From Deltaproteobacteria bacterium (lineage in GTDB: Bacteria; Desulfobacterota; Binatia; Binatales; Binataceae), in assembly GCA_027317185.1 (NCBI GenBank), contig DAHVFB010000007.1:1064-65063 (forward strand): DNA of 64,000 nucleotides, given 5' to 3'. This document shows, piece by piece, positions 503-16,961 of this stretch. Position 1 is the stretch's first letter. Every line of letters begins with the position of its first letter. The notes beneath the pieces were generated by a model. It ran no database searches, was not told the origin of the DNA, and saw only the letters and a program-made list of their open reading frames with translations. The translations under genes were made by a program, and so were the position numbers.

Positions 503-1831
<1,329 letters not shown>

Positions 1832-1956
1832 CTATCAGTCGCGTGTTGATTGCCGGGTTCTATCGATGTCTGATGGTATGCGCAACCGGTGACGGATTAA
1901 ACCGAAAAGGCGCGCCCCTTCCGGTCGCAGATATTAAGAGCCCGAGGCTAGTCATT

Positions 1957-3717
1957 TCAGGTCTGCCCGCTGGCATATTTGGTGAATCGCTCCACCCTGC
2001 TTATCCCTTGCGAAAGACGCCCCCGATGGGCTCGCTGATGGCCGAGCAGGATGTTCAGGATTGCAAGCCTGCCATCTATGCGTCGCATACGATCCAGGAA
2101 AACAGACACCGTAACCGTCGACGCTGCTTCAATCACGTCGAAGCGATCAAGCCATCCGCTTACGCGCTCCTCGATTTGCGCAATCTCCGTCAGAAGGTTT
2201 TCCCGCGTGGCGCCAGAGTAGAGGCGAGACGCTCGATCGCGTTCCAACCCGGACAACACCTTGTCGCCAATCCAATCGGCGCGAAGAATCAAGAGCTCGA
2301 TAAGGGTTCGCGGCAATGGACGCGCCGCCGCGGAAGCGGCTGCCAGGTACTCGACTGCTTCGGAAACGTACAGGGGATTACCGTTAGCTCTGGAAACGAT
2401 CTCGCGCAAGGCGCCGGCCGGAAAGTTGAGGCCAGTGTAAGATGGCGACGCTTCGACAAGCTGCTTGATTTCGTTATTGGACAGCGGGGTGAGCCGAAAC
2501 CGGAACTCGACCATGGAGGAATTCATTTCCTCAGCCTGAACGAATGATGGCCGGTAAGAGAGAATTGTCAGGGACCGATCAAGACTCCCGATCATCTCCG
2601 ACATGCGGCTGCGCGATTGCCAGTCGATCCAGTGCACGTCGTCGATGACCATCAGTGTCTGGCCACCCAGTTTTCGGAGCCGGTCCAGAATTTCCGTCAC
2701 CGAGGGCATTGATGAACCGCCATCAAGGGCGCCGCTACCGAGGGGTTCAATTAGCCGGAGCCAGGATCGGCCCGCATAGTCGCCATAGGGCACGCCGCTG
2801 CAACCGAGTCGCGTCCAGCCGTCGAGAACACCCGATCGATCGCCTCCGCCCAGCCATTCACGGATGAGACGGGACTTGCCCTGCCCTGCCTCACCGATAA
2901 GACGACAGACCACGGCTGTATTGGCGGCCAGACGGAGCGCCACGTCCAACTGCTCCGCAACCTCATCTCTCCCGACCATTGGCGTCCTGTCCAGACCTAC
3001 ATGAGCGGTTCCGGAACGCTCGTCCTTCCGGCCCAGCAGCTCGAATACCGTGAATCCGCCCTCCATCCTGGAGAGGTTGAGATTCAGACCATTGAAATCG
3101 AATTGATCCACTATTCGCAGATATGCCGACTGGCCGAAGAACACCCGTCCCGGCTGAGCGAGCGACGCCAGGCGAAAAGCTTGCGCCGTGGAATTCGACT
3201 CAGCACTCAACACCACGCCCAGCGCTGTGTTGAGTGCTGAAGATTTGTCCAGCGCGGTCCCCAGCAATCCAAGCTTCCTTATAGCCAAAGCTGCCCGGGC
3301 CGCCTGTTCGGGACCGCCGCCAGCATCGGTCCAACACGCGATGGCGCCGCGCCGGCGAATGATCCGAACAATTCCACCGAATGCGGCAAATCGCGCGAGT
3401 ATTTCCTTGAAGCTGTTGCGCGCGTGGGCGGTAACGCTGGCGGTTTTCGAGCCGGATCTCAACTCGACCGCTATGATTGCGGCGCCGATCGCTTCCTGAA
3501 CATCCTCCGGCTCTCCTTCCGCCGGAACGACTCGGCAGATGCGCTCGTTGTGCTCGCAGCCATGCAACCAGGTAGCGCAGTCGTTGCAGTAATCCCAATC
3601 GGCCGGCCAATGACTGTGACACCGTGGACATTCGCGAAGGGTAACCTCGCTCGAAGAAACGACGAGGTGAGGCCATCCCGGTGTTGAGTGTTTAGGTGAG
3701 TGTTTAAAGGAAGCCAA
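1957..3717 (-). CDS. signal-transduction ATPase: N-terminal double zinc ribbon (CPRC..CNDC), adenylate/guanylate cyclase-like domain, P-loop NTPase (GEAGQGKSRL .. MVIDDVHWID), STAND-like
   Basis: Cys pairs at the N-terminus. A cyclase-homology-like segment. Walker A GxxGxGKS and Walker B hhhhDD. No C-terminal HTH seen. Confidence 0.5.
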   Translation of the reverse strand: MASFKHSPKHSTPGWPHLVVSSSEVTLRECPRCHSHWPADWDYCNDCATWLHGCEHNERICRVVPAEGEPEDVQEAIGAAIIAVELRSGSKTASVTAHARNSFKEILARFAAFGGIVRIIRRRGAIACWTDAGGGPEQAARAALAIRKLGLLGTALDKSSALNTALGVVLSAESNSTAQAFRLASLAQPGRVFFGQSAYLRIVDQFDFNGLNLNLSRMEGGFTVFELLGRKDERSGTAHVGLDRTPMVGRDEVAEQLDVALRLAANTAVVCRLIGEAGQGKSRLIREWLGGGDRSGVLDGWTRLGCSGVPYGDYAGRSWLRLIEPLGSGALDGGSSMPSVTEILDRLRKLGGQTLMVIDDVHWIDWQSRSRMSEMIGSLDRSLTILSYRPSFVQAEEMNSSMVEFRFRLTPLSNNEIKQLVEASPSYTGLNFPAGALREIVSRANGNPLYVSEAVEYLAAASAAARPLPRTLIELLILRADWIGDKVLSGLERDRASRLYSGATRENLLTEIAQIEERVSGWLDRFDVIEAASTVTVSVFLDRMRRIDGRLAILNILLGHQRAHRGRLSQGISRVERFTKYASGQT

Positions 3718-3789
3718 CGTGAAAATCCTGTGATGCCAGCCATCGCAGGAGTCATTGGCCGCTACGAAAACGGCAGGTTGTCAGAAGGC

Positions 3790-3951
3790 GGACTCCACCA
3801 CCCCAGCTACATAAGATACGCAATACAACTTCCCTAGATCAAGACGAATTGAAAAGGTCGATATTGGTTCGGCGGGCCAGCGCCGAACCACGCTGCTGTT
3901 GCTTCCTAGTAAGATTATGCTATTGTCCGCACGCTGGTGGTGGAGTTCACC
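3790..3951. repeat. 12-bp inverted repeat (GGACTCCACCACC / GGTGGTGGAGTtC) enclosing a 10-bp perfect hairpin (TGGTTCGGCG-ggccag-CGCCGAACCA), in a lower-GC divergent intergenic region
   Basis: Read directly from the sequence. Function unknown (small RNA, MITE remnant or operator). Confidence 0.3.
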
Positions 3952-4050
3952 GTAACCGCTCTTCCTGACGGAATAGCCAATAACTCCTAAGGCAATGAAT
4001 TTGTCTTGGGAGTTTTTTTTGCTGCGTTTTGTCTGCGGAGAGGATGAAAA

Positions 4051-4779
4051 ATGGACTCCAATCGACTCGCGCCGCTTTCGTTTGCTGCAAGCTCTTCAGC
4101 TCCTTACCACAACCTTAGAAAATGGACTGCGGATTGGACCCTGACCGGCCATGATCGTAGACCGCCCCATTCGCCTGGCGTATACCCCTTATGGCGCCTG
4201 ATTGCGGGTAGAAGCGGCCGTGGAAGGCCGGGCGGTCTCTTGGTAGCATGGACACTCTGGGAGCGATGCGCCAATCGGATATGGCCTTCCAGATCGATTC
4301 CAGGTGCGCCTTTTGGCCTGCTGCGATTCCGTCCGATGCGATACTGCGGTAATCCGCTGCTATTGCCCGACGGCGCCCTTATAGTTCCTGGCGATCTGGT
4401 AGGCGAGCTTCACTGCAACAATACTGCCCTCGCCACCCTCATTGAGTTCCGTGAGATAAGCCGGCTGCGTGCGTGCCGCGCCGATCTTAACAGCCTCGGG
4501 CGCTGGCTCGGGCAAAGCGGCGAGCTTCCCACGCTCAAGGCATTCTACGGCGTAACTCTCCTCTGGTGGGCCGCTGCGAGACTGGGATTCAACGTCCGAG
4601 AGCGGCAAGCACCATTACGTAATTGGTTCGACTGGATCTTTATGGGCGGGCTTCTGTTGATTTACGCAGCCGATGGAGCTACCCGAGCAAAACTCGGAAC
4701 CACTCTGAGCCGTACACCTCGCGAAGTTTGGATTTCACGTAAAGAACTCTCGCGTGGATACGCGGACAGTGTACGGTAA
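4051..4779 (+). CDS. hypothetical protein
   Basis: ORF with a strong RBS (GGAGAGGATgaaaaATG). No recognisable domain. Confidence 0.4.
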   Translation: MDSNRLAPLSFAASSSAPYHNLRKWTADWTLTGHDRRPPHSPGVYPLWRLIAGRSGRGRPGGLLVAWTLWERCANRIWPSRSIPGAPFGLLRFRPMRYCGNPLLLPDGALIVPGDLVGELHCNNTALATLIEFREISRLRACRADLNSLGRWLGQSGELPTLKAFYGVTLLWWAAARLGFNVRERQAPLRNWFDWIFMGGLLLIYAADGATRAKLGTTLSRTPREVWISRKELSRGYADSVR

Positions 4780-4868
4780 TTGCATTCGCTCCAAGTGGAA
4801 GAGGGATTACTCCGCGATCGAATGCTCCTTTACTCGAACTTTGAGATGATCGGCGAGGAGGAACAATC

Positions 4869-6044
<1,176 letters not shown>

Positions 6045-6194
6045 TCGCTGGACGTGGAGGATGGCGCTTGGGTGCGAGTCTCGCGTTGGATGGAGACCGA
6101 TGAGTCGTGAACGATGAGACAAATTCTGTGTCTCTGGGAAGTATCGTTGCATAGGTCGAACGGACTGCCGAAAATCGTGCGCATGGAACTGATT

Positions 6195-6252
6195 ACGGTG
6201 ATGAGGTTCCACCGAAACCGCTCCAGGCTTGTGTGATCTGGTGAACCCTACT
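6195..6252 (+). ncRNA. fluoride riboswitch (crcB motif), copy 1
   Basis: GGUGAUGAGGUUCCACCGAAACCGCUCC..P3(CCAG/CUGG)..UGAACCCUAC matches the crcB-motif core (GGnGAUGnnGUUCnCC .. AACCGC .. CCUAC). The loop GAGGUU can form the pseudoknot with AACCCU. It sits directly upstream of DUF190-CBS and crcB. Confidence 0.75.
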
Positions 6253-6283
6253 GCTGTTGATCATGCGTAGGGAGCTTTTTTTG
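6246..6283 (+). terminator. intrinsic terminator / expression platform of riboswitch 1
   Basis: CCCTAC-15 nt-GTAGGG stem followed by TTTTTTT. The 5' arm overlaps the CCUAC pseudoknot strand of the aptamer. Confidence 0.65.
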
Positions 6284-6409
6284 GGAGGTCTCTGCCGAAA
6301 GGTAAAGGGTCCTTTTGTGATCGTGAACATCGCCCATCTGATACGCTTTCGGAAGCGCGGTCCGCAGGGGCGCGCCAGCGCTTTCGCAATGCCAGGAGGG
6401 CAGTGATCA

Positions 6410-7690
6410 ATGTTCACCGGAAGGGCTAAACAGATCACGATCTTTATCGGCGAAACGGATCAATACCATCACCAGGCGCTGTATATGGCGATTATCGAGA
6501 TGCTCCGGCGCGAGGGCTGCAGCGGCGCGACTGCGACTCGCGGCGTGGCGGGCTTTGGGGCCTCATCGTTGATTCACACCGCGATGATTCTTCGACTGTC
6601 CTTCGATCAGCCACTCGTGATCACAGTCGTGGACCGCCCCGAGCGGATCGATCGCGTCCTCGCTCCTCTGCGGGAAATGGCTCCGAACGCCCTGATCACG
6701 GTTCAGGAAGTGGAAGTCGTCCAATCGGGTGCTCCCTTCAAAGAGGGACTGCCCGATTTGAAAGTTTCCGAAGTGATGCGTCGTGAAGTCGCCACGGTGC
6801 ATCCCGACAGCGCAATTACCCAAGTTGTCGAATTGTTGCTGGATAAGGACTTCACGGCGGTGCCGGTGATCGACGATGAGGGCAGGGTTGTCGGGATGGT
6901 GAGCGACAACGACCTGCTGACGCGCGGCGGGATGAACGTCACGATCAGTCTGAAAAAGGCGACCGATTTGGATTATGTGCGCGAGCTTCACGAGTCTCTT
7001 GAGAACGCGAACCGCAAAGTGTCGGAAGTGATGACGCGCGAGGTGGTGACGACTACTCCCGACGCCATTCTCGGACGAGCGGCCAGACTGATGGTCGAAA
7101 AACATCTCAAGCGGCTACCGGTCGTGAACAGCGATGGAAGGCTGGTGGGCATCCTGGGCCGCCTGGATGTTTTGAACACGATTGCGGCGGTCCATCTGCC
7201 GGAGTGGCATCCCGAGGCGCATGCCAACGGCGCACAGTCTACGGTGGCCGGCGTGATGACCCGCGAAGTTCCCACCGTCCACGAAACTGCGACAGTTGAA
7301 GAAATTTTCGATCTGCTCGTTTCATCGTCGCACAAGCGGGTAGTCGTGGTGGACGACAAAAGGCATGTTGTTGGAATTGTCGCCGACTCTGATTTGATTT
7401 CGAAGGTGAGCCGTGAGAGCTGGCCGGGGATAATGGAAATCCTCATCTCCAAGGTTCCAATCGGCCGAGTCAGCGCAGAAGCGCGCAAGCACATCCAGAA
7501 GTTGCGTGCCCGCTCCGCAAAGGAACTGATGACGCGCAACGTCGTCACGGTTCGCGAGAAGATGCCCGTGGCGAGCGCCTTGGCGTTGTCTGCGGAAAAG
7601 CGGGTTAAGCGGCTGCCGGTGGTGGACGCTGAAGGCGAGCTGGTAGGAATCGTCGGACGCACGGAAATGATGCGCGCACTGCTGGCCTAA
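6410..7690 (+). CDS. DUF190 (PII-like, COG1993) domain fused to four CBS domains
   Basis: N-terminal ITIFIGETDQYHHQALYMAIIEMLRREGCSGATATRGVAGFG is DUF190-like. It is followed by two CBS pairs (repeated h..VhT..P..VVDD.G.hVGIVS..DL). Confidence 0.85.
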   Translation: MFTGRAKQITIFIGETDQYHHQALYMAIIEMLRREGCSGATATRGVAGFGASSLIHTAMILRLSFDQPLVITVVDRPERIDRVLAPLREMAPNALITVQEVEVVQSGAPFKEGLPDLKVSEVMRREVATVHPDSAITQVVELLLDKDFTAVPVIDDEGRVVGMVSDNDLLTRGGMNVTISLKKATDLDYVRELHESLENANRKVSEVMTREVVTTTPDAILGRAARLMVEKHLKRLPVVNSDGRLVGILGRLDVLNTIAAVHLPEWHPEAHANGAQSTVAGVMTREVPTVHETATVEEIFDLLVSSSHKRVVVVDDKRHVVGIVADSDLISKVSRESWPGIMEILISKVPIGRVSAEARKHIQKLRARSAKELMTRNVVTVREKMPVASALALSAEKRVKRLPVVDAEGELVGIVGRTEMMRALLA

Positions 7691-7715
7691 ACCGCGACAT
7701 GGAGGAACTTGGAGA

Positions 7716-8090
7716 GTGCTGGGAGTTTTGTTTGTCGCGATTGGCGGGGCCATCGGGTCGGCGACTCGTTATCTGGTGGGCGGATGGTTTGCATCCCGGT
7801 TTGGCCCGTCGTTTCCGTACGGAACCTTCGTGATCAATGTGACAGGGAGCTTCATTATTGGACTTTTCCTCGCATTTGCTCAGGAGCGGGTTTCGCTCAG
7901 CCCTTATTGGCGACTGTTCTTTGCGGTGGGCGTTGTCGGAGGCTATACTACCTTTTCGACCTTCGAGTATGAGTCGGTTCGATTGCTTCAGGATGGGGAG
8001 ATGCTGCTGGGGTCAGTTTATCTGGTAGGGAGCGTTGCGATGGGCGCTATCGGCGCCGTGGCCGGAATCACGCTTGGCAGTTGGATTTGA
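7716..8090 (+). CDS. crcB: fluoride ion channel CrcB/Fluc
   Basis: 124 aa, 4-TM. Motifs GGAIGSATRY and GGYTTFSTF are typical of CrcB. Confidence 0.9.
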   Translation: MLGVLFVAIGGAIGSATRYLVGGWFASRFGPSFPYGTFVINVTGSFIIGLFLAFAQERVSLSPYWRLFFAVGVVGGYTTFSTFEYESVRLLQDGEMLLGSVYLVGSVAMGAIGAVAGITLGSWI

Positions 8091-8110: not shown

Positions 8111-8139
8111 TTGACAGTCGGACAGCGCCTGCTACACTT
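8111..8139 (+). promoter_or_regulatory. candidate sigma70 promoter (TTGACA-16-TACACT) upstream of riboswitch 2
   Basis: Hexamers read from the sequence. Weak -10. Confidence 0.25.
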
Positions 8140-8153
8140 CTATGGACAGCGTT

Positions 8154-8210
8154 GGTGATGGGGTTCACCGCCACAACCGCCCTTTCCTGAGCAGGGCTGA
8201 TAACCCCTAC
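8154..8210 (+). ncRNA. fluoride riboswitch (crcB motif), copy 2
   Basis: GGUGAUGGGGUUCACCGCCACAACCGCCC-uuuccugagc-AGGGCUGAUAACCCCUAC is a near-consensus crcB motif. P1 is GGUG/CACC, P3 is GCCCU/AGGGC, and the pseudoknot is GGGGUU/AACCCC. Confidence 0.85.
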
Positions 8211-8241
8211 CGAGGTGTACGCCGGTAGGGGTTGATTTGTT
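8204..8241 (+). terminator. intrinsic terminator / expression platform of riboswitch 2
   Basis: Perfect 9-bp stem CCCCTACCG / CGGTAGGGG with a 10-nt loop, followed by TTGATTTGTT. The 5' arm overlaps the pseudoknot strand. Confidence 0.7.
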
Positions 8242-15971: not shown

Positions 15972-16961
15972 GTGCGGCTAGACTTAGCTTATGGGTACAG
16001 GTGGTGGAGTCCACCAGGAACCGCCATCCGGCCAATGACTCCTGCAGCGGGTAGAGACCCGCGGCGGGAGGACTCCTTCCGACTCTCGGGTCTCGAGACC
16101 GCTCCGACGATTGTTGATCGGAGACCGGAAGTGCTCGAGCGCCTGACAAAGAATTTCCGAGAACTCCTCAAGCAGTTCGGTGGCGCCTCGTGCTCCCTGT
16201 GCGCCGTATTGAAACGGCGGGAGGAAGAGGAAATCGAGCGAGTGCGCGCTAGCAGTGCCTCGGCCAGAGTCTTGTGCGGCCCGCATCTCGAGATGGTGCT
16301 GTTCGCGGTTGCCAGCCCGATGACAAGGGCGGGAGTGACTCGCAGTGCGATCGAATCGGTCCTCGCCGACCGATCCGATTGCGACGCGTGCTCAAGGCTC
16401 AGCCAAATCGAGCTTAGGCTTGCACGCGCGATCCGCCGTTTGGACGGCGGGATGCGCTTCAGGAAGGCGCTCGAATCGGCGCCGCTTTTCTGCCGCAAGC
16501 ATGCGGATATCGTCGCGCAACAGGATGTCGCGGTTAACTTTGCACAGGTTCAGAGGGCGAAGCTCCTCCACTTACGCGATGCGCTCGCTCAGGCCGAGTT
16601 GCGTAACGGCGCAGAGATGGAATCGCTGATATTGACGGCGCTCACCTATCTGGCCGCTCCTCTTCAGCAAGAACCGCCGCCGGTGGAAGTCCACGATTCC
16701 TCCGATTGCACGGAGAACGAGGCGGCGGAATTCGAGCGATGGGAGGAAGCACGCCAGTTCAAGCATCTGGCCGACCTCGAGAGCGAAGCGGCAGGCCTGC
16801 GCTATCGCAACGCCGTGCTTTCTGAAGAGAACCGCAGACTCAAGCTCGCCCATGTCGCTGGCGAAGCGATCCGGCGCGACCTTGAGCACGATCGAGCACA
16901 GCTCCTCGCCGCGGCGAAGGAACAGGATGCAAAACCGCTGAAGTTTTCGAGCCGACATTAA
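15972..16961 (+). CDS. hypothetical protein with two CxxC-(26-31 aa)-CxxH modules and a C-terminal coiled coil
   Basis: CSLC..CGPH and CDAC..CRKH. First gene of the overlapping-stop operon. Start codon uncertain. Confidence 0.5.
   Translation: MRLDLAYGYRWWSPPGTAIRPMTPAAGRDPRREDSFRLSGLETAPTIVDRRPEVLERLTKNFRELLKQFGGASCSLCAVLKRREEEEIERVRASSASARVLCGPHLEMVLFAVASPMTRAGVTRSAIESVLADRSDCDACSRLSQIELRLARAIRRLDGGMRFRKALESAPLFCRKHADIVAQQDVAVNFAQVQRAKLLHLRDALAQAELRNGAEMESLILTALTYLAAPLQQEPPPVEVHDSSDCTENEAAEFERWEEARQFKHLADLESEAAGLRYRNAVLSEENRRLKLAHVAGEAIRRDLEHDRAQLLAAAKEQDAKPLKFSSRH

Follow-up and report, generated by a model that had tools for sequence, protein, structure and literature searches.

Does a fluoride riboswitch still control the fluoride-channel operon in this member of the uncultured Binatota? 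The question is raised by a stretch of 64,000 nucleotides (nt), hereafter the window, from Deltaproteobacteria bacterium (Binataceae; assembly GCA_027317185.1, contig DAHVFB010000007.1). On its plus strand, an aptamer-like element (6197-6251) and an overlapping terminator hairpin, T1 (6246-6282), lie upstream of a gene for a DUF190-CBS fusion and of crcB, which encodes the Fluc fluoride channel, and thus precede fluoride-toxicity genes. The initial annotation took them for a working riboswitch that drives these two genes. We delimited the aptamer by reading the sequence, by searches with the covariance model RF01734 and by aligning orthologs. The element does descend from a fluoride riboswitch, but it fails four features by which the family is defined. 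We put at about 0.7 the probability that, at 6197-6282, it is now an orphaned and probably fluoride-blind relic.

Descent from a fluoride riboswitch

In its anatomy, the element resembles the crcB motif, as initially annotated at 6195-6252, coordinates that are 1-2 nt off. The P1 helix is formed by GGTG (GGUG; 6197-6200) and CACC (6210-6213), with four of four pairs present, and encloses the loop ATGAGGTTC (RNA: AUGAGGUUC) at 6201-6209. An AACC joining stretch precedes P3 (GCTC, 6220-6223; GATC, 6235-6238), and the 3' tail, TGGTGAACCCTAC (RNA: UGGUGAACCCUAC), spans 6239-6251. The canonical pseudoknot strands correspond to 6203-6208 and 6243-6248. The nucleotides of the fluoride pocket, A6201, U6202, G6203, U6242 and G6243, are all present, together with U6239 of the A6-U38 pair. 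In T1, CCCTAC (6246-6251) faces GTAGGG (6267-6272), followed by an AGC spacer and a T7 tract (6276-6282). The CCCUAC strand of this stem overlaps the pseudoknot strand, as the initial annotation had proposed; the shared-strand platform is therefore present, though weakened.

The covariance-model score departs from this likeness. The gathering score of RF01734 (Fluoride) is 34 bits, and at that threshold the whole window yields only two matches, at 8145-8216 and 15991-16051, and none at 6195. A search with this model was the check that the initial annotation had proposed for itself, naming the absence of a match as an outcome that would refute its claim. When the thresholds are relaxed, the element is found at 22.2 bits, with an E-value of 0.0062 in a 4.7-kb search and of 0.085 in the whole window. 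Taken alone, this score barely exceeds chance. The whole-window E-value would suit an element that resembles the crcB motif by accident and has no riboswitch ancestry, a reading to which we give practically no weight: it is refuted by the syntenic location of the element, by its identity to the aptamer of the closest relative (48 of 58 positions, 83%) and by a clade-specific nhmmer model, which matches the window copy with an E-value of 3.3e-10 (39.2 bits).

These comparisons draw on 113 related loci collected through the DUF190-CBS protein, 35 from species genomes and 78 from metagenomes. Almost all of the 35 genome loci are labelled as Candidatus Binataceae or as 'delta proteobacterium' metagenome-assembled genomes. 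A Fluoride match above the gathering score lies directly upstream of the DUF190-CBS gene in 22 of them, and 11 lack any aptamer. According to RF01734, the orthologous aptamers in the 22 genome loci score 39.7-57.6 bits, mostly 49-58, which leaves the window copy 12 bits under the gathering score and 18-35 bits under its orthologs. The clade model identified 55 orthologous aptamers (41-66 bits), and the window copy is the lowest of the 56. The window element is syntenic with the canonical aptamers in the 55 loci. In the closest relative, L058 (Ga0080006_1135882), amino acid identity is 97% for DUF190-CBS, 99% for CrcB and 96% for HyfC; this locus has a consensus aptamer, a TTGACT promoter and, directly upstream on the opposite strand, eno.

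We accept the homology of the element because of its orthology (shared position, identity to L058 and clade model) and not on the Rfam score. Single-sequence folding of 6188-6300 was uninformative, the fold being no better than those of shuffled sequences (z = -0.9). Together, these comparisons show that the element at 6197-6282 is a true ortholog of the canonical terminator-type (ON) transcriptional fluoride riboswitch of Candidatus Binataceae. Descent from a fluoride riboswitch, part of the original proposal, is thus borne out by synteny, by identity to L058 and by the clade model.

Changes in the aptamer and its terminators

The window copy differs from its orthologs at four columns that are invariant in 55 of 55: 6204 (G>A), 6237 (G>T), 6241 (A>G) and 6245 (C>A). 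In the aptamer structure, 6204 is G9 and 6245 is C44, partners in two different pseudoknot pairs, 6241 is A40, and 6237 lies on the 3' side of the second P3 pair. Two of the six canonical pseudoknot pairs are broken (A9-C46 and G11-A44), both of which are G-C in 22/22 orthologs. One of the four P3 pairs is also broken, a central C-U mismatch in GCUC/GAUC that cmscan marks with a 'v' and that is C-G in all 22 aligned orthologs. The alignment of 23 sequences has 98% of its cells paired, and the broken pseudoknot and P3 cells are solely those of the window. None of the four changes is compensated in the canonical register. P3 and the pseudoknot had been described as 'slightly' non-canonical, a wording that understates changes at four invariant sites. 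The collected loci contain 61 other distinct aptamers, whatever their kind; 55 of these have no pseudoknot mismatch and all 61 have A at the A40 column, where G occurs in the window only.

The A40 site has a defined role. The reverse-Hoogsteen pair A40-U48 is a highly conserved 'linchpin' that is essential for the fluoride-locked state (PMC8752731), and its role has also been described in PMC11077080. In the window, the A40 position of this pair is G6241. The U48A substitution disrupts the linchpin and abolishes the fluoride-locked docked state (PMC8752731), and a U41A mutant is ligand-blind (PMC11077080). Moreover, the composition of the pseudoknot decides switching, such that even GC-to-AU changes can abolish it (PMC11077080).

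The same substitutions could be read as coordinated re-registration instead of decay. The pseudoknot would then be shifted by 1 nt, pairing GGUUC (6205-6209) with GAACC (6243-6247) and extending to G8-U48, and an alternative P3 would form between CCAG (6223-6226) and CUGG (6238-6241). Such an aptamer would lack A40-U48 and would sense fluoride in a different manner, or another anion or ligand; it would add a new structural type to the fluoride riboswitches. Consistent with this, both G9>A and C44>A count against the canonical register and for the shifted one (5 bp), and A40>G creates the CCAG/CUGG helix. However, the pattern GGTGATGRGGTTC...CTGGTGAMCCCTAC had no match in metagenome contigs. 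None of the four changes occurs in the 55 orthologs, which include relatives at 94-97% identity, and there is thus no sign of selection maintaining them. The single-sequence fold, as noted above, is no better than shuffles, and a register shift of 1 nt would probably disturb the fluoride pocket, which depends on the geometry of the backbone. We consider a remodelled aptamer of this kind very improbable, both as a working sensor and as a product of coordinated change.

To place the substitutions against a neutral yardstick, we used the 4-fold degenerate sites of the DUF190-CBS gene. These differ between the window and L058 at 17.9% (42/235), and the changes private to the window branch amount to 8-13%. 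Over 56 nt of aptamer, 7 substitutions (12.5%) and 2 indels separate the two, and every one of them arose on the window branch, the L058 aptamer being the clade consensus. The aptamers of L058, L038, L039, L003 and L026 are identical, although the 4-fold sites of these loci have diverged by up to 35-39%. The window aptamer thus appears to have diverged at the neutral, 4-fold-site rate. The T1 region is also only about 70% identical to that of L058. By contrast, the 124-nt tract at 6286-6409 is 93% identical. This tract includes the conserved leader or 5' untranslated region (6320-6409, plus strand), with its Shine-Dalgarno sequence AGGAGGG (6394-6400). Because 93% identity stands against 17.9% divergence at 4-fold sites, the leader is still constrained, as are the genes: DUF190-CBS has retained 97% amino acid identity to L058 despite that divergence, and crcB 99%. 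On this region-by-region comparison, it is specifically the aptamer and the terminator that have lost constraint, whereas the proximal leader and the genes have retained it.

T1 itself is weakened. Its hairpin has a predicted energy of -11.6 kcal/mol, 9 kcal/mol weaker than that of L058 (-20.7 kcal/mol) and outside the range typical of the relatives (-17 to -21 kcal/mol), and 3 nt separate the stem from the T tract. The terminator scan did not call T1, but its 15-nt loop exceeds the limit of the scan, and the result is no argument against the hairpin.

A second, T2-like hairpin follows on the plus strand at 6287-6319 (stem-loop 6287-6312), with the sequence GGTCTCTG-CC-GAAA-GG-TA-AAGGGTCC and then TTTTGTG. 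It is found in most orthologs, where a covarying stem of 8 bp ends in a CC-GNRA-GG tip and is preceded by an A tract and, in most cases, followed by a U tract; compensatory stems include GGGCUCUG/CAGGGUCC, GGACUCUG/CAGAGUCC and GGGCUCUG/CGGAGCCC. The evidence for this hairpin consists of per-sequence folds, and RNAalifold, given a poor MAFFT register, returned only 6 pairs of weak energy. Compared with L058, the window hairpin is weakened by a G>T change in the stem and a T>G change in the U tract. The 3' strand and U tract of T1 (AGGGGCUUUUC) are complementary to the 5' strand of the T2-like hairpin (GAAAGGGCUCU; cf. L058:2375-2410). As an idea only, a single aptamer might gate two terminators through such a relay.

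Loss of the promoter and expression of the operon

All 22 aligned orthologs carry (C/G)TTGACT about 45 nt before P1, and no equivalent of this promoter was found upstream of the window element. Where the orthologs carry TTGACT, the window has a weak candidate, TTGCAT-17-GAAAAT (6147-6175, plus strand), read from the sequence; the promoter scan called no promoter for the element, this candidate included. We also considered a remnant -35 in 'CGGACTGCCG', derived from TTGACTGCCG, and rejected it, as blastn found no homology between the intergenic region of L058 or L038 and 6045-6196.

The neighbourhood has changed as well. In 19 loci (L058, L038 and 17 others; 74-97% identity), eno lies on the minus strand directly upstream of the riboswitch, and because this adjacency is recurrent it is ancestral. 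In the window, eno (503-1828, minus strand) is 4.4 kb from the element, and metK (4869-6044, plus strand) is directly upstream. According to blastn, the homology that runs from L058 and L038 through eno ends at about position 1756, inside the first dozen codons, and no part of their intergenic region matches 6045-6196. Between these limits lies a lineage-specific block of about 4.4 kb (1757-6190), which comprises an AAA_16 gene (1957-3717, minus strand), two further fluoride-type aptamers, a gene for a YkoP-domain protein (4051-4779, plus strand), which forms a unit with metK, and metK itself. By this comparison, the block has replaced the ancestral region between eno and the riboswitch, including the riboswitch promoter.

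The same event bears on eno. Its first 11 or so codons and the sequence upstream of them (1757-1828 and 1829-1956) are not homologous to L058 or L038, and the remainder of the gene is 95% identical at the nucleotide level. Through the rearrangement, eno acquired a new N-terminus and came to lie downstream of the AAA_16 gene and of the minus-strand aptamer. The stretch between the AAA_16 gene and eno contains a weak hairpin and a TTGCGC-17-TAGAAC site.

Independent remodelling of this riboswitch has also taken place in other lineages. In L037 (95% identity; 560-640), the promoter, the aptamer and the 5' half of T1 are deleted, and the T2-like hairpin, the motif described below, the leader and the genes are kept. 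The L046-L053 group (e.g. L047:2285-2400) has G8>C, a weak terminator, a T2 without a U tract and no TGnTAnnCT. The aptamer of L004 (327-391) lacks two loop nucleotides. In L052 (1310-1380), the aptamer directly abuts the Shine-Dalgarno sequence, an arrangement that suggests a translational platform.

The genes downstream are those proposed at the outset. The first (6410-7690, plus strand) encodes a 426-residue fusion of a PII-like DUF190 domain (PF02641, 8.2e-33) with four CBS domains (PF00571). The second (7716-8090, plus strand) is crcB, encoding a 124-residue Fluc channel (PF02537; TIGR00494 at 101.5 bits, with a cut-off of 80.45 bits). The DUF190-CBS orthologs are 63-97% identical across more than 100 loci of Candidatus Binataceae, where the fusion is conserved and nearly always followed by crcB. 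NCBIfam has no characterized family that spans the whole protein, giving only CBS-domain matches below their cut-offs. One possibility, given this linkage, is that DUF190-CBS is a regulatory partner of the Fluc channel. A tblastn search of the whole window with its crcB returned no further copy, and no search aimed at CLC-F was made. Because the two genes are still under purifying selection, the operon must be expressed.

A candidate for the signal that drives this expression lies in the leader. The extended -10-like motif TGATACGCT (6339-6347, plus strand), of the form TGnTAnnCT, is designated here as a putative internal promoter, P2, on account of its conservation. The motif occurs 59-85 nt (mostly 66-75) before the ATG in 44 of 74 distinct orthologous upstream regions, including 19 of the 33 without an aptamer; by our own estimate, which assumes five fixed bases and a window of about 50 nt, the chance expectation is about 4%. 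The site is identical in the window and L058. The promoter predicted for the riboswitch at 8145, TTGACA-16-TACACT, is preceded by TG and shows the same TG plus TAnnCT form of the -10 element. TGnTAnnCT is thus a probable internal promoter for riboswitch-independent expression of the operon. Such a promoter would explain the retention of the operon after the deletion in L037, the 11 of 35 genome loci without an aptamer, and the figure, given in a review, of only ~15% of Flucs under riboswitch control (PMC11139923).

Read-through from the YkoP-metK unit could be an alternative or additional source of transcription. This unit has its own fluoride aptamer (3927-3996) and a strong terminator (3982-4014), and the terminator scan found no terminator-like site between the metK stop codon (6044) and T1 (6246). 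The same gap bears on a sub-variant of the relic reading, in which the relic was co-opted as a constitutive intrinsic terminator of YkoP-metK, so that changes inactivating the aptamer were favoured and not neutral. In line with co-option, the T tract was improved from TTTTCTTTT to T7, and the minimum-free-energy fold contains a long hairpin, GCUCC (6220-6224) / GGAGC (6271-6275), that abuts the U7 tract directly. Changes are also no rarer at invariant aptamer sites than at variable ones (4/20 vs 3-5/35). That hairpin is irregular, however, the canonical T1 stem and the T2-like hairpin are both weaker and not stronger, and positive selection cannot be demonstrated from so few changes. We therefore regard co-option as a doubtful, though tenable, refinement.

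The sequence of events that we favour, with the element as an orphaned relic, is as follows. In Candidatus Binataceae, the riboswitch ordinarily lies between the divergent eno gene and the DUF190-CBS-crcB operon. As the comparison with L058 and L038 shows, a rearrangement in the window lineage exchanged the intergenic region and its TTGACT promoter for the ~4.4 kb block ending in metK. The orphaned aptamer would have drifted at the neutral rate. Among the substitutions observed, G9>A and C44>A break two pseudoknot pairs, G>U breaks a P3 pair, and A40>G removes the linchpin. An aptamer so altered would no longer sense fluoride. The operon would be expressed from the extended -10-like promoter in the leader, by read-through from YkoP-metK, or both. 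The weakened T1 with its T7 tract and the T2-like hairpin would act at most as leaky terminators of upstream transcription. The DUF190-CBS-crcB operon of this genome is thus probably not gated by the 6197-6251 element.

Several observations weigh against this account. P1, A6, U7, G8, U41, G42, the A6-U38 pair, U48 and CCUAC are intact in the window aptamer, and its T tract is longer than those of its relatives. The TTGCAT-17-GAAAAT site lies at a plausible distance upstream. Our case for fluoride blindness draws on conservation and on mutants at other sites (U48A and U41A), not on A40G itself. Seven substitutions are a small number, for which neutral drift is statistically indistinguishable from other fast evolution, and the two pseudoknot changes suit the shifted register described above. 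The promoter role of TGnTAnnCT is deduced from its conservation, and efficient termination at T1 and T2, if it occurs, would bar read-through from metK from feeding the operon.

Part of this evidence would equally serve a working riboswitch, as initially annotated, in which a fluoride-stabilized pseudoknot keeps CCCUAC from the terminator and thereby turns on DUF190-CBS and crcB, the deviations being tolerated. The orthologous position and the overall architecture are retained; P1, the pocket nucleotides, U48 and T7 are intact; the genes are intact and constrained; and a weak promoter-like site is available at 6147-6175. Natural fluoride riboswitches also vary in pseudoknot sequence (PMC11077080). 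Nevertheless, the score is below both the gathering score and every ortholog, the lowest of 56. All four changes fall at invariant sites without compensation in the canonical register. G at A40, with its broken linchpin (PMC8752731), has no counterpart in the 61 other aptamers. The conserved TTGACT promoter is lost, the divergence is at the neutral rate with none in sister lineages, and T1 is 9 kcal/mol weaker and set 3 nt off its T tract. We consider it unlikely that the element still drives the operon. For annotation, the window copy should not count as a functional fluoride riboswitch.

The wider fluoride locus and known systems

Permissive RF01734 thresholds revealed two sub-threshold aptamers in the ~4.4 kb block. 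One (3811-3739, minus strand, 30.2 bits) precedes the AAA_16/zinc-ribbon-like gene and then eno. The other (3927-3996, plus strand, 32.0 bits) precedes the YkoP-domain gene and then metK. A canonical aptamer (8145-8216, plus strand, 47.3 bits), with the TTGACA-16-TACACT promoter at 8111-8138, precedes an operon resembling those for group-4 NiFe-hydrogenase/formate hydrogenlyase. A further aptamer (15991-16051, plus strand, 42.0 bits) precedes an operon for an unknown protein, a metallophosphoesterase, a HEAT-repeat protein, a dynamin-like GTPase and an MFS transporter. Five fluoride-type aptamers thus occur within 12.3 kb, that at 6197-6251 being by far the weakest. The initial annotation had counted two fluoride riboswitches within 2 kb: the one at 8145-8216 is upheld, but the locus holds five aptamers and the copy at 6197-6251 is below threshold. 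Its broader view of a fluoride-response locus is sustained, as eno, metK and further riboswitches lie beside the crcB operon.

The aptamers at 3927-3996, 3739-3811 (minus strand) and 15991-16051 have G at A6 and C at U38 (GGUG-G-UGG ... GC-C-AAUGA), whereas those at 6197-6251 and 8145-8216 keep A6 and U38. This pattern resembles covariation of a tertiary pair, A6-U38, that is not part of the scoring in the Rfam model, and two of the aptamers may owe their sub-threshold scores to it. Fluoride aptamers are known before crcB, before enolase-linked genes and before a formate hydrogenlyase-like complex. All gene classes of the regulon are already-known associates except the metK/YkoP and dynamin sets, which are unusual members. 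The locus as a whole illustrates the size that a fluoride regulon can reach in uncultured Binatota.

For the riboswitch class as such, the theme is already known (PMC11139923); the window copy is a degenerate member and adds little that is new. Its value is as a small, clean natural example of riboswitch death, in which the promoter would have been lost by local rearrangement and neutral drift followed, with the genes and proximal leader constrained. Sister genomes provide a comparative series of intact (L058, L038), decayed (window) and deleted (L037) states. The window copy is also a natural A40>G linchpin mutant with pseudoknot mismatches that can be set against published mechanistic models.

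The element shares much with the RF01734 family, of which the aptamers of Bacillus cereus crcB and Thermotoga petrophila (4ENC) have been studied: the layout of P1, P3 and pseudoknot; the signature AUG...AACCGC...UG.UGA...CCUAC; the pocket A6, U7, G8, U41 and G42; a terminator that shares the CCUAC strand with the pseudoknot; and a position upstream of crcB. It differs from the family in its score (22.2 vs 34 bits), in G for A40, in mismatches at 2/6 pseudoknot and 1/4 P3 pairs, in the 3-nt spacer before the U tract and in having no recognizable promoter of the ortholog type. With its Binataceae orthologs (L058, L003, L026 and L038), it shares the genomic slot, the leader, the T2-like hairpin, TGnTAnnCT and the genes. 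Unlike the window copy, these orthologs score mostly 49-58 bits and have TTGACT, an adjacent eno and a terminator of 7+4 bp (-17 to -21 kcal/mol), and the four substitutions are absent from them. Riboswitch variants whose ligand specificity has changed, such as the ykkC subtypes, likewise carry a few substitutions at invariant binding or tertiary sites within a recognizable parent fold, but they are conserved across many genomes and associated with a different set of genes. By contrast, the window element is a singleton in an unchanged gene context.

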